Positions 55,151-62,876 are shown, counted from the first letter of the stretch. The stretch is DNA of 64,000 nt from Escherichia coli (GCF_044324875.1 NZ_CP172185.1); one strand, 5' to 3'. Numbers and translations are program-made. The notes: generated from the sequence alone by a model not told the origin.

Positions 55151-55417
55151 ATGGAATGGCTGGTCAAAAAATCGTGCTGCAATAAACAAGATAACAGACA
55201 TGTACTTATGCTCTGCGATGCTGGCGGCGCGATAAAAATGATCGCCGAAGTGAAGAGTGACTTCGCCGTGAAAGTGGGGGATTTACTCTCCCCTTTGCAG
55301 AATGCGCTTTATTGTATTAATCGTGAAAAGCTGCATACGGTGAAAGTCCTCTCGGCAAGCAGTTATAGCCCCGATGAGTGGGAACGGCAGTGTACAGCGG
55401 CAGGGAAAACTCAGTAA
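55151..55417 (+). CDS. pmrD: signal transduction connector protein PmrD
   Basis: 88 aa from ATG at 55151 (MEWLVKKS...); between menE and the arn operon. Confidence 0.75.
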
Positions 55418-55797
55418 CGTTGTTTTGTCGTGGGCAGGAAAATCAACATCAACCCGCTCATAATACAAGCAACTCCCAGTAGTGCCTTCAGCGAAAAAGT
55501 TCCTTCCCAGCCGGGAAGTATCATTGATGCAATCCATACCAGCACATAGCTCATACTGAGCAAGGCATAGGCTTTGCTTAACGCAAGTTTATGTAGCGTT
55601 TTATACCAACAAAAAACGGAAAGCAGATAACCCAGCAGCCCGAGTAACAGTATCCGGGCATCCAGGCCAAAAGCTAACAGCGCCGCGATAAAATCCCATA
55701 AGTGCGTCATCGGCGGCAGATGACTCGCCGCAAAACCCAGGCTTAATTGCGCAGCGGAGGCGATAATGACGCTGAATAATCCCCACATCAGGCCCAT
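55411..55797 (-). CDS. arnF: undecaprenyl-phosphate-L-Ara4N flippase subunit ArnF
   Basis: 128 aa from [17 protein letters not shown]..., 4-TM SMR-like protein; the 222 aa track ORF is a frame extension running into arnE. Confidence 0.75.
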
Positions 55798-56132
55798 TAC
55801 ACGGTACTCCCGAGGATCACAATGCCACCAATAATGAACGCCACCCCACACCAGTGACGCGGCGATACCGGTTCGTGCCACAGTTTTACTGCAGCCAGCG
55901 TCACCCAGACAAAATTCAGACTTAACATCGGGTAGGCAATGCCTACCGGTACGTTCTGCAAGACCAGCAGCCAGAGCACCATGGCAAGACCAAGACAAGC
56001 CAGCGCCAGTCCCAGCCACAGCACGATATGTTTGCGCCGTTTGTTTATCGCCACAAAGCAGGTTGCCTGTTTCTGACACAACTGCCCGGCAACGCTAAGC
56101 AAGCTGGCAAAGACTAATGTTAGCCAGATCAT
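55797..56132 (-). CDS. arnE: undecaprenyl-phosphate-L-Ara4N flippase subunit ArnE
   Basis: 111 aa 4-TM SMR-like protein; overlaps arnT and arnF ends. Confidence 0.75.
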
Positions 56133-57781
56133 TTGGGACGATACTGAATCAGCACCAGACGCTCCTGACGATCGATGGCATCTGCGGGCGGAATGGCGAG
56201 ACTGTTGATATCTTCATTGCGGTCAACCGAAAGCACGAGTGTAATAATCCCCTCCTGACGATGTTGATTAAGCCAGTTTGCGAACTCATCACCGCTGACA
56301 AATCTCCCTTTCGCATCCGGATAATTAAGGCCGTATTTCAACTCACCTGTCTGGCGATACATGATGATGTCATCGCGTTGCAGGCTCCATGCCAGACCTG
56401 CGGCAACACCGACGCTATCAGTAAGAATATAGCGGCTTGGCTGAAGTGATTCTTGTGTCATCTCGACAAAAAATTGCGGATGTTTTCCTTCCATGACTCT
56501 GTCAGGAATTGAAAATCCTACCAGCAACGCCAGCCCCAGCGGGCAAAGCGCGGCAAAAGACCAGGTCTTTTCGACGTTTGTTAAGGTGTACCAGCCGAAA
56601 AATGCCCATAGCGAAAAAATCGACCAGGCACAAAAGACTTTATAGCTCTCGAAGGTTTGCCACACTGGCGTGTTCATTGGTCCCCATGGGGAGACCACAA
56701 ATGTGGCAATAATGCCAGTGACACCAAAAGTGATGTTAATCCAGCCATTAATCCGCAGCGCCAGAGGATTATTTTTTGCTGCCAGCAAAGCGTAATGCGC
56801 CATCAGCATTGCCAGAGGTGCAAAGCAGGAAAGAATATAGGTGGGCAATTTGCCTTTGGCGACGGAGAAAAACAGCAGCGGCATTATCGTCCAGCTCAAC
56901 AAATAGACGGTTGCGGAATGCTTGCGGTTTTTCCAGCCTGCGTACAGTGCTCCGGGGAGTAATCCCAGCCACGGCAGGCTACCGGCAATGATGACCGGCA
57001 AGTAGTACCAGAACGGAGCTCTATGCTGAGCATCATCCATTGCAAAGCGTTGAATATGCTCAACCCAGAAAAAATAGTGCCAGAAGTCAGGCTCCCGCTG
57101 CGCTATCGCCAGTCCCCAGGGGAGAACCGTCAGTACGCAACTGATGACCGCCAGCCAGCCGTAAATAAAGAGATCTTTCCAGCGTTTTTGCGTTGCAACC
57201 CATGGAAGCACGCTTAATACCGGCACGGCAAGGGCGAGAAAACCTTTGGTCATCACCCCCATGCCGCAGGTGATTCCCAGCAGTAAAAATCCTGCGCTTT
57301 TGCCTTTCCACGTCTGTGCCTGCATTGCCAGCCAGAAGCTGCACATTCCCGCCACCAGCCAGAAGGCAATAAACGGATCGAGCACGGCATAAGTGCCGAT
57401 GGCATAGACAATAAACAATGAGAGATAAATCACTGCGGCGAGTAATGCCAGACGTTTATCGCGCCATAAGCGCAGAGTAAACCAGGTCACCAGCGCGGCA
57501 GTTAACAGGGTCGCAAAGATAACGCCTGCCCGCACACCAAAGTTATTCGCGCCAAATAGCCATTGCCCAATGCTGTTAATCCAGTATCCGGCAATGGGTT
57601 TTTCGAAATAACGTAGCCCTAACAGATGGGGCACAATCCAGTCGCCGGATGCCAGCATTTCCCGACTGATTTCCGCATAACGCGTTTCATCGGGTTGCCA
57701 GAGCAGACGCGTGCTGATCGGTAACAGGTAATAGCAGGCAATAAACGCGAAGAGGCCGATAAGGTAACGTACCGATTTCAT
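56129..57781 (-). CDS. arnT: undecaprenyl-phosphate-L-Ara4N:lipid A Ara4N transferase
   Basis: 550 aa GT-C/PMT-like polytopic glycosyltransferase. Confidence 0.9.
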
Positions 57782-58671
57782 CAGCGACTACCCGCAATTT
57801 GTTGGCAACCCAGCCAGCCTTCACGTCCGGCAATATTTCCGCGAACAACTTGCCCGAGCGGCAACGTCCCTGATAACAGTTCGCTTAAAGGGCAAAATGT
57901 CACGCCTTCCTGGGCTGCCCGTTTCAGGAGATCCACAAAATTATGCTGATAAGCGCAGCCTTCAACTTCTGCATGAATGGTATAAACCGGCATGCCTTTA
58001 TCTCGCAGGATGCGGTTGAGTAACCAACCGTTAAAATCTTCTGCTTTCACATCCCGACCAATCACTTCATCCCAGGTGGGTAAGGTCACCGGAATTTGCG
58101 CAGTACCGGGTTTTCCTGATTCGAGCAATGGACGAAACGGCATCGCCCCACGACAATCGCTGTTGTAGCGCAAATGGAACGCTTCTTTTGCTTCGATCAC
58201 CTGCTGGTCGGCACGCCAGCCAGCGGCTGCGGAGCAAGTTACCGGTTGGCCGATAATTTCTTCCAGGGTGCGAAGGCCGCGTGCGATATCGTCGACCATT
58301 GTTTGCCGATCCCAGTTACCGCTATGGGCTTGCCATGCATGGTGATCCCAGGCGTGCAGGCCGACTTCGTGGTGTTTAGCCGCTTCACGAATGATATCGG
58401 CATTGGCATGACCAATCTCTTTACCTGGCCAGGCCGTACCTGCCAGTAAAATATCCCAGCCATAAAGCGATGCCGCGTTTGAGCGCAGCATCTTCCACAA
58501 AAACCTTGGCTTCACCAGTCGCCAGAGATGGCGGCCCATATTGTCCGGGCCGACGCTGAAAAAAATGCTGGCCTGAATATTATGCTTACTCAAGATTTCC
58601 AGCAGACGCGGCACGCCTTCACGGGTGCCACGAAAGGTATCGACATCAATGCGTAAGCCGACTTTGGTCAT
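57781..58671 (-). CDS. arnD: Ara4FN-undecaprenyl-phosphate deformylase
   Basis: 296 aa polysaccharide deacetylase-family protein. Confidence 0.85.
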
Positions 58672-61618: not shown

Positions 61619-61621
61619 GGC

Positions 61622-62779
61622 TTATTGTCCTGCGAGTTGCTGAAGGGCTGTGATGACGCGGTCGGCATCGGCGGTGGTCATATCCGGGAACAGCGGCAAC
61701 GAACAGATGCGTTCGCTATTCCATTCGGTATTCGGTAACGACAGCGTGGGAAAACGCTCGCGATAATATTTTTGTGTGTGAGCGGCGCGGAAATGTAACC
61801 CGGTACCAATGCCTCTTTCTTTTAACGCTTCCATCAACGCATCGCGACTGATACCACAACGTTGTTCATTGACACGAATAATAAACAGATGCCAGGCGTG
61901 AACGTGCGGCCAGGCGGGAAGGCTTAATGGCTGAAAGGGGAGAGCTGCCAGTGCTTGCTGATATTGCAGAGCAATTTCGCGCCGACGGGTGTTGAGGTGC
62001 TCTAATTTGGCTAACTGGGTCAGGGCAATCGCGGCGTTAATATCGGTCAGATTATACTTATAGCCCGGCGTTAAGACTTCAGCTTGCGGTGCACGGCCCC
62101 AGGTTTGTCTGTCATAGGCATCGACACCCAGACCGTGAAATTTCAGCATCCGTAGCAGGCGGGCAAGGTTTTCATTATCTGTAACAATCAGGCCACCTTC
62201 CGCACAGGTAATATTTTTGATGGCGTGAAACGAAAAAATAGCGGTACCTTTTGCGCCAATATGTCGCCCTTTGTAATACGTACCGACGGCATGGGCAGCA
62301 TCTTCGATAACTGCGATGCCGTAACGTTCGCCAATGGCGCGAATGGCGTCAATATCTGCTGGCGCACCGGCATAATGCACCGGAATGATGGCTTTAGTGC
62401 GTGGCGTAATGGCTGACTCGATCGCTTCAGGCGTGACCATCAGCGTATCGCGGTCGACATCCACCATTACCGGCGTTGCACCCAACAAGGAAATCATATT
62501 GAGGGTTGAAACCCAGGTCAGGGAAGGCGTAATCACTTCATCGCCCTTGCCAATTTCCAACGCCATTAGCGTGATATGCATTCCGGCGGTGGCTGAACTG
62601 ACCGCGATGGCATGCTGATTTCCCGTCAACTGGCAAAAGGCTTGTTCAAGCGCCTGATTCTTCGGACCGGTTGTGATCCAACCGGATTCGAGAACCTCTT
62701 TAACTGCAGCGAGTTCCTCCACGCCCATTGCTGGTCGCGAAAAAGGCAAAAATTCTGACATTGCTTTTCCTTCCGCCAT
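61622..62779 (-). CDS. arnB: UDP-4-amino-4-deoxy-L-arabinose aminotransferase (DegT/ArnB family, PLP)
   Basis: PLP-dependent DegT-family aminotransferase; start ambiguous among in-frame ATGs at 62794, 62779 and 62761 (379-390 aa). Confidence 0.9.
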
Positions 62780-62859
62780 TGAATACCTGTCCACTTATAT
62801 TTGCTATAAAGAGTGTTGTGTATATTTTGCCATTTGGAGCAAAATTTTAAGGATAGAAT

Positions 62860-62876
62860 ATTAACTTAACCTTAAG
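62860..62876 (-). promoter_or_regulatory. PmrA (BasR) box upstream of arnB
   Basis: Minus strand reads cttaag-gttaa-gttaat, a hexamer direct repeat with 5 bp spacer as in the PmrA consensus YTTAAK-N5-YTTAAK; 81-97 bp upstream of the arnB start. Confidence 0.7.

Follow-up and report, generated by a model that had tools for sequence, protein, structure and literature searches.

The 64,000-nucleotide stretch of Escherichia coli DNA analyzed here (GCF_044324875.1, NZ_CP172185.1; hereafter the window) carries seven co-directional open reading frames (ORFs) on its minus strand, arranged in the order arnB-C-A-D-T-E-F between nucleotides 55411 and 62761 and lacking internal stop codons. The gene pmrD lies beyond the distal end of this series, and ais is the divergent neighbor of its first gene. 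These features very probably represent the canonical, intact arnBCADTEF operon of E. coli (also called pmrHFIJKLM or pbgPE) together with a promoter that depends on BasR (PmrA). A preliminary description of this DNA had called the locus intact, and this assessment is borne out: translation of all the arn genes revealed no frameshift or premature stop, and their lengths equal those of the K-12 genes.

The gene identities proposed in that description are supported by three kinds of evidence. The seven Arn proteins (against equivalog models), PmrD, and Ais all score above the curated NCBIfam cut-offs with end-to-end alignments. Solved structures in the PDB cover ArnA, ArnB, ArnC, ArnD, and PmrD over essentially their full lengths, and ArnT only in part. 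Finally, the RefSeq annotation of a 99.9%-identical genome gives the gene order menE, pmrD, arnF, arnE, arnT, arnD, arnA, arnC, arnB, ais, and nudI. The individual features are collected in Table 1.

Table 1. Genes and putative regulatory elements of the arn locus. Positions are those of the window; bit scores are followed by the NCBIfam cut-off.
Feature	Position	Strand	Properties
arnB, uridine diphosphate (UDP)-4-amino-4-deoxy-L-arabinose aminotransferase	61622-62761 (alternative to 62779)	-	379 amino acids (aa); NF008658, 735 bits vs 631; full-length PDB matches including 1mdo and 4oca
arnC, undecaprenyl-phosphate 4-deoxy-4-formamido-L-arabinose transferase	60650-61618	-	322 aa; NF007986, 673 vs 529; PDB 9hwj, residues 1-322; 1 aa change vs K-12
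arnA, bifunctional formyltransferase / UDP-glucuronate oxidative decarboxylase	58668-60650	-	660 aa; NF005998, 1260 vs 777; PDB 1z7e, residues 1-660; 10 aa changes vs K-12
arnD, 4-deoxy-4-formamido-L-arabinose-phosphoundecaprenol deformylase	57781-58671	-	296 aa; NF011923, 522 vs 382; PDB 8t0j
arnT, lipid A 4-amino-4-deoxy-L-arabinose (L-Ara4N) transferase	56129-57781	-	550 aa; NF009784, 815 vs 567; distant PDB match 5ezm (Cupriavidus ArnT), residues 10-372
arnE, flippase subunit	55797-56132	-	111 aa; NF011625, 214 vs 92; protein 100% identical to K-12
arnF, flippase subunit	55411-55797	-	128 aa; NF002816, 139 vs 99
pmrD, connector protein	55151-55417	+	88 aa; NF011994, 174 vs 96; PDB 2jso, residues 1-88
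ais (pmrG homologue), divergent neighbor of arnB	63069-63671	+	NF011945, 392 vs 142; RefSeq annotation of a 99.9%-identical genome
PmrA/BasR box CTTAAG-GTTAA-GTTAAT, CTTAAGGTTAAGTTAAT	62876-62860	-	half-site 1, 62876-62871; half-site 2, 62865-62860
Predicted -10 hexamer TAAAAT of the arnB promoter	62849-62844	-	10 nucleotides downstream of the box; cross-species conservation
Candidate PhoP-dependent pmrD promoter	55083-55117	+	imperfect PhoP box CGTTGA-TAAAG-AGTTTA, 55083-55099; 12-nucleotide spacer; TAAATT, 55112-55117

Comparison with E. coli K-12, wherein the arn operon corresponds to b2253-b2258 and b4544, pmrD to b2259, and ais to b2252, revealed the same gene order, orientation, gene lengths, and junction types, including the overlap between the arnF and pmrD ends described below. 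The proteins are 97.6 to 100% identical to their K-12 counterparts, with 0 to 10 amino acid substitutions each. The 109-base-pair (bp) spacer between menE and pmrD is identical in the two strains. The region between arnB and ais differs by five substitutions, none of which falls in the PmrA/BasR box, and the 289-bp region upstream of the arnB start annotated in K-12 carries an identical box. The same order of the seven genes also occurs in Salmonella enterica and Klebsiella pneumoniae, where the operon is known as pbgPE (pmrHFIJKLM), and in 75 to 80 other species.

Of 5426 complete E. coli genomes, 5422 gave a match to a 9.2-kb query (nucleotides 54800 to 64000). In 5411 of them at least 80% of the query length is matched at an identity of at least 95%, with the same annotation, the best matches being 99.9% identical. 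The arn locus is already annotated and published, and belongs to the textbook core genome of the species. To judge from its genes, the operon contributes to polymyxin resistance by placing aminoarabinose on lipid A, and the strain would possess, intact on its chromosome, a pathway through which resistance to polymyxin and cationic peptides can be induced. As the same pathway is present in essentially every E. coli (5411 of 5426), nothing specific to this strain is learned from its presence. No tandem repeats were found in nucleotides 54800 to 64000, and a permissive scan of nucleotides 54000 to 64000 with Rfam yielded no match to an RNA family.

The 5′ end of arnB can be placed at three candidate start codons: a GTG at 62794 that opens the mechanically defined ORF, an ATG at 62779 that is annotated in K-12 and yields a protein of 385 aa, and an ATG at 62761 that RefSeq uses in other strains and that yields 379 aa. 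To compare these and other features across species, we used a set of 80 arnB loci, each from a different species of Enterobacterales, of which 75 to 80 were usable for any given gene junction. The ATG at 62761, which begins the sequence M-S-D/E-F and follows the Shine-Dalgarno sequence AAGGAA, is kept in most of the 80 loci. Outside Escherichia, a counterpart of the ATG at 62779 was seen in one Citrobacter only, and in-frame stop codons separate the two ATG positions in many species. Moreover, the NF008658 model starts at residue 7 of the 385-aa form. The start at 62761 is therefore the better supported of the candidates. The longer form would add the extension MAEGKA, which is seen in Escherichia only and is encoded by the Shine-Dalgarno sequence itself.

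Upstream of arnB, the preliminary description had reported a CTTAAG-N5-GTTAAT box, and the sequence contains precisely this element, 115 nucleotides from the conserved arnB start codon. Considered as a bare motif, the box is weak evidence for regulation: the loose form YTTAAK-N5-YTTAAK, allowing up to one mismatch, occurs six times in the window versus 2.9 expected, which is not an enrichment, and the initial G of the second half-site departs from YTTAAK by one mismatch. The experimentally verified PmrA boxes of Salmonella, however, consist of CTTAAG, five bases, and XTTAAT (PMC3973317), a form that the arnB box fits exactly. A search for CTTAAG-N5-NTTAAT found one match in the window versus 0.03 expected, and the arnB box is also the sole perfect match to YTTAAK-N5-NTTAAK in the 64 kb. 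In the E. coli arn promoter, a 2023 study of enteropathogenic E. coli (EPEC) named this same site as the PmrA consensus, “with a slight modification,” and the 60-mer used there for electrophoretic mobility shift assays is 100% identical to nucleotides 62893 to 62834 on the minus strand of the window (PMC10729948). Control of arn by BasR in E. coli is described in that study and likewise in PMC4145685.

The operons of S. enterica and K. pneumoniae have the same box architecture upstream of their first gene, wherein two hexamers are arranged as a direct repeat with a 5-nucleotide spacer. The Klebsiella box (CTTAAT-ATTAT-CCTAAG) is located about 170 nucleotides from the start codon, compared with 115 nucleotides for the box in the window (CTTAAG-GTTAA-GTTAAT). 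This orthologous box, CTTAATATTATCCTAAG, was recovered at the same position in our Klebsiella and Raoultella loci, and has been footprinted and verified by binding assays and nuclear magnetic resonance titration (PMC2565834, PMC3973317). Literature searches for footprinting of pmrG/pbgP and for BasR with the direct repeat of the arnB promoter returned nothing and no relevant paper, respectively.

Conservation across species provides independent evidence for the box. On the sense strand, 74 of the 80 loci carry a box upstream of arnB with a score of 10 or more out of 11, versus about 10% of shuffled upstream regions. When the 74 species with a good box are aligned on it, the base 11 nucleotides after the box is T in 72 sequences, and those 12 and 16 nucleotides after it are A and T, respectively, in all 74, such that a −10 hexamer of the form TAnnnT lies exactly 10 nucleotides downstream of the box. 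The box and the TAnnnT element at fixed spacing constitute a strong phylogenetic footprint, which would fix the promoter geometry as box, 10 nucleotides, and TAnnnT. Because of this spacing, we infer that the box occupies approximately positions −39 to −23 and replaces the −35 element, an arrangement that matches the class II activator geometry of OmpR/PhoB-type regulators. The predicted transcription start of arnB is near nucleotide 62837.

The arnB-ais intergenic region (nucleotides 62762 to 63068, 307 bp) contains only one PmrA-type box. Although ais is a BasR-regulated gene, when the ais strand of this region was searched for a PmrA box of its own, none was found, just the reverse reading of the same box, which arises because TTAA and CTTAAG are palindromic. 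For the same reason, a reverse-strand control (score of at least 10 in 48 of the 80 loci) is invalid for this motif. Sequence variation within the box was seen among relatives. Half-site 2 ends in C rather than T (GTTAAC) in Escherichia sp. E1V33 and in E. albertii, and several Citrobacter species carry CTTAAGGATAAATTAAC upstream of arnB. The last base of the box is, judging from these sequences, the least constrained position in this clade.

Two points weigh against the interpretation of the box as a classical activator site. A promoter scan missed the arnB promoter, which is expected if a −35 element is lacking, and its hit counts equal those in shuffled sequence, making the scan uninformative; the hit counts of a terminator scan likewise equal those in shuffled sequence. 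The EPEC study proposes that, in one strain, PmrA occupying this site keeps RNA polymerase out and the activator is QseB, in disagreement with the classical model (PMC10729948). The box would then be mainly a repressing or occluding site, and QseB phosphorylated by PmrB the real activator of arn, as proposed for EPEC O125ac:H6. The same report finds arnB constitutively elevated in a pmrA qseC double mutant, a shift by phosphorylated QseB of the 60-mer identical to the window sequence, and a predicted sigma-70 site inside the PmrA site. Yet in that work the minimal inhibitory concentration changed in the double mutant only and not in the pmrA single mutant. In Klebsiella and Salmonella the orthologous box mediates PmrA-dependent activation (PMC2565834, PMC3973317). 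The invariant distance between box and −10 element in 74 species also corresponds to the geometry of a class II activator that replaces the −35 element. On balance, we consider occlusion as the main role of the box quite unlikely.

Even less credible, in our estimation, is the notion that the box matches by chance, in an intergenic region rich in AT, and plays no part in regulation. The near-background count of the loose motif would fit this notion, as would the palindromic nature of TTAA and CTTAAG, which inflates matches and accounts for the many high scores on the reverse strand. However, the exact form is hardly expected even once in a window of this size, shuffled upstream regions reach the threshold score far less often than the real loci, the spacing to TAnnnT does not vary, and binding to the orthologous boxes has been published. 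An activating BasR site thus appears to be by far the most probable function of the element.

The seven arn genes are packed closely together. Translated coordinates establish 1-nucleotide overlaps at arnC/arnA (TAATG), arnD/arnT (TGATG), and arnE/arnF (TAATG), and 4-nucleotide overlaps (ATGA) at arnA/arnD and arnT/arnE. Each of the five stop/start overlaps listed in the preliminary description was therefore recovered. At the remaining junction, arnB/arnC, where that description had claimed no overlap, there is a 3-nucleotide gap. Overlaps of 1 or 4 nucleotides are present at C/A in 78 of 80 species, at A/D in 72 of 78, at D/T in 42 of 77, at T/E in 71 of 75, and at E/F in 73 of 75; in the other 35 of the 77 species a short gap separates arnD from arnT. 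The 1- and 4-nucleotide forms interconvert between lineages, while abutment is kept at four of the junctions. We also noted that, upstream of its ATG, the arnF frame continues for 94 codons with no stop, overlapping arnE in a different frame and creating a 222-aa ORF (nucleotides 55411 to 56079, minus strand). This ORF was rejected as a fusion or frameshift product; among 75 species the open stretch measures anywhere from 2 to 123 codons and looks like the outcome of chance.

Overlaps of these two types occur at five of the six arn junctions, versus eight of the 44 other co-directional gene pairs in the window (Fisher p = 0.003). The preliminary description had taken such overlaps to imply translational coupling along the operon, and two findings weigh against so general a conclusion. 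Among the junctions inside the nuo, men, and his operons, also in the window, eight of 19 have overlaps of this kind, a density that arn does not exceed (p = 0.10), and hence the density of overlaps in arn is an ordinary operon property. Furthermore, most arn genes own a Shine-Dalgarno sequence, such that coupling may be dispensable at most junctions. The computed energies of pairing with the anti-Shine-Dalgarno sequence are −5.7 kcal/mol for arnB (ATG at 62761), −4.0 for arnC, −5.4 for arnA, −3.3 for arnD, −3.8 for arnT, +0.6 for arnE, and −6.9 for arnF. An independent ribosome-binding site is therefore present at arnA and arnF, weak at arnD and arnT, and absent at arnE.

The arnE start stands out across species as well. 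Its median energy across 75 species is −0.8 kcal/mol, and only 4% of these species reach −4 kcal/mol or lower, which is below the 23% found for random 20-mers; by this measure 96% of the species have no Shine-Dalgarno sequence at arnE. The site of arnF, the gene that follows, is among the strongest, and the medians for arnF (−7.6 kcal/mol) and arnA (−6.0 kcal/mol) denote strong sites across species. Coupling is best placed at arnT/arnE because arnE has no Shine-Dalgarno sequence while its start overlaps the arnT stop, and termination-reinitiation from arnT to arnE is a good inference from these data. At the arnD and arnT starts, coupling is plausible, and for arnA and arnF the strength of their own sites suggests that it is unnecessary. 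The earlier claim of coupling thus appears well supported at a single junction, and is not needed to explain translation of the genes with strong sites.

An alternative view holds that the overlaps reflect mere compaction of the operon, with each gene initiated at its own ribosome-binding site and no functional coupling. The recognizable Shine-Dalgarno sequences of arnB, arnC, arnA, and arnF (−4.0 to −6.9 kcal/mol), the strong arnA and arnF medians, the similar overlaps in the nuo, men, and his operons, and the frequent short gap at arnD/arnT are all in keeping with this view. The energy at arnE, which is unfavorable here and reaches −4 kcal/mol or lower in only 4% of species, is not, and neither is the overlap of the arnE start with the arnT stop in nearly all species or the persistence of abutment at four junctions through swaps between the 1- and 4-nucleotide forms. 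Compaction without coupling is accordingly a possible but rather doubtful account of the whole operon. Known cases of termination-reinitiation involve the same ATGA and TAATG overlap forms that are seen at five of the six arn junctions, and the absence of a Shine-Dalgarno sequence at arnE adds to the likeness; arnA and arnF differ from such pairs by carrying strong sites. A literature search on the predicted translational coupling in arn found no paper on the subject in the library consulted, only an irrelevant review.

We therefore favor a model wherein the 1- and 4-nucleotide overlaps would keep translation of neighboring genes physically linked, but wherein coupling is most probably obligatory for arnE only, given the good ribosome-binding sites of arnB, arnA, and arnF. 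In a modest reading of these observations, arnE may be translated solely through reinitiation after arnT, which would tie the supply of ArnE to that of ArnT. The systematic lack of an arnE Shine-Dalgarno sequence makes the arnT-arnE junction the place for tests of coupling.

At the distal end of the operon, the 3′ ends of arnF and pmrD converge and, in agreement with the earlier description, overlap by 7 bp (nucleotides 55411 to 55417). This 7-bp overlap is found in Escherichia, and gaps of 2 to 9 bp are found in Citrobacter. Because neither arrangement leaves space for a terminator between the two genes, the predicted transcripts must overlap. We considered whether BasR-driven arn transcription running antisense through pmrD, along with pmrD transcription running antisense into arnF, might, in E. 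coli, act by transcription interference or as antisense negative feedback upon the PhoP-PmrD-BasR connector. This is an unlikely proposal at present. If true, antisense feedback would take over the role that a repressing PmrA box has at pmrD in Salmonella; with up to one mismatch allowed, the sequence upstream of pmrD in E. coli showed no PmrA box.

We also searched for a PhoP box in the region upstream of pmrD (nucleotides 55042 to 55150), as the preliminary description had recommended. The best candidate, CGTTGA-TAAAG-AGTTTA, has three mismatches and is no better than chance as a motif. Scans with the PhoP consensus at up to three mismatches gave 175 hits in the window versus 122 expected, which is too noisy for motif scoring, and conservation was used instead. 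In nine sequences from Escherichia and Citrobacter, the region upstream of pmrD retains the GTTTA half-site, the 12-nucleotide spacer, and a TAAnnT element. In E. coli, pmrD is stated to be expressed in a PhoP-dependent manner (PMC2565834). The 5′ end of pmrD contains three ATG codons in three frames at 55146, 55151, and 55156 (ATGCAATGGAATGG at 55146 to 55158), corresponding to the three-ATG “start site array” of pmrD reported for E. coli and Shigella (bioRxiv 10.1101/2021.07.26.453917). Of the three, the second (55151), which is the functional one, reads into the pmrD frame in the window, giving the functional E. coli arrangement.

These features can be assembled into a scheme for control of the locus. 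BasS/BasR is activated by Fe3+, Al3+, or mild acid, and PmrD protects phosphorylated BasR. In the arn promoter, phosphorylated BasR would bind the direct repeat as a head-to-tail dimer at the −35 position, 10 nucleotides upstream of TAAAAT, and would recruit RNA polymerase to produce one polycistronic arn mRNA. PmrD expressed from the PhoP-type promoter would protect phosphorylated BasR and thereby link low Mg2+ to arn expression.

The products of this mRNA act in the pathway established by the Raetz laboratory. ArnA, through its C-terminal domain, carries out the oxidative decarboxylation of UDP-glucuronate; ArnB converts the resulting product by transamination to UDP-L-Ara4N, which the N-terminal domain of ArnA then formylates. 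ArnC then transfers the sugar to undecaprenyl phosphate, ArnD deformylates it, ArnE and ArnF flip the lipid-linked sugar across the inner membrane, and ArnT adds it to the phosphates of lipid A, where L-Ara4N lowers the binding of polymyxin and cationic peptides.

Elsewhere in the window, the interval between dedD and cvpA contains a 91-bp unit repeated three times in tandem (nucleotides 1579 to 1847). The unit consists of palindromic sequences resembling repetitive extragenic palindromes and bacterial interspersed mosaic elements (REP/BIME). Alignment to a closely related strain, which permits several alternative registers, suggests that the copy number of the unit differs between the two. 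A second difference, from K-12, is found at approximately nucleotides 42780 to 44660, where the window lacks two segments: one of about 1.6 kb, equivalent to most of yfbK, from between elaD and yfbL, and one of about 2.6 kb, equivalent to yfbN-yfbO-yfbP, from between yfbM and nuoN. The yfbL-yfbM segment that remains is 92% identical to K-12, compared with 97 to 98% for its flanks.

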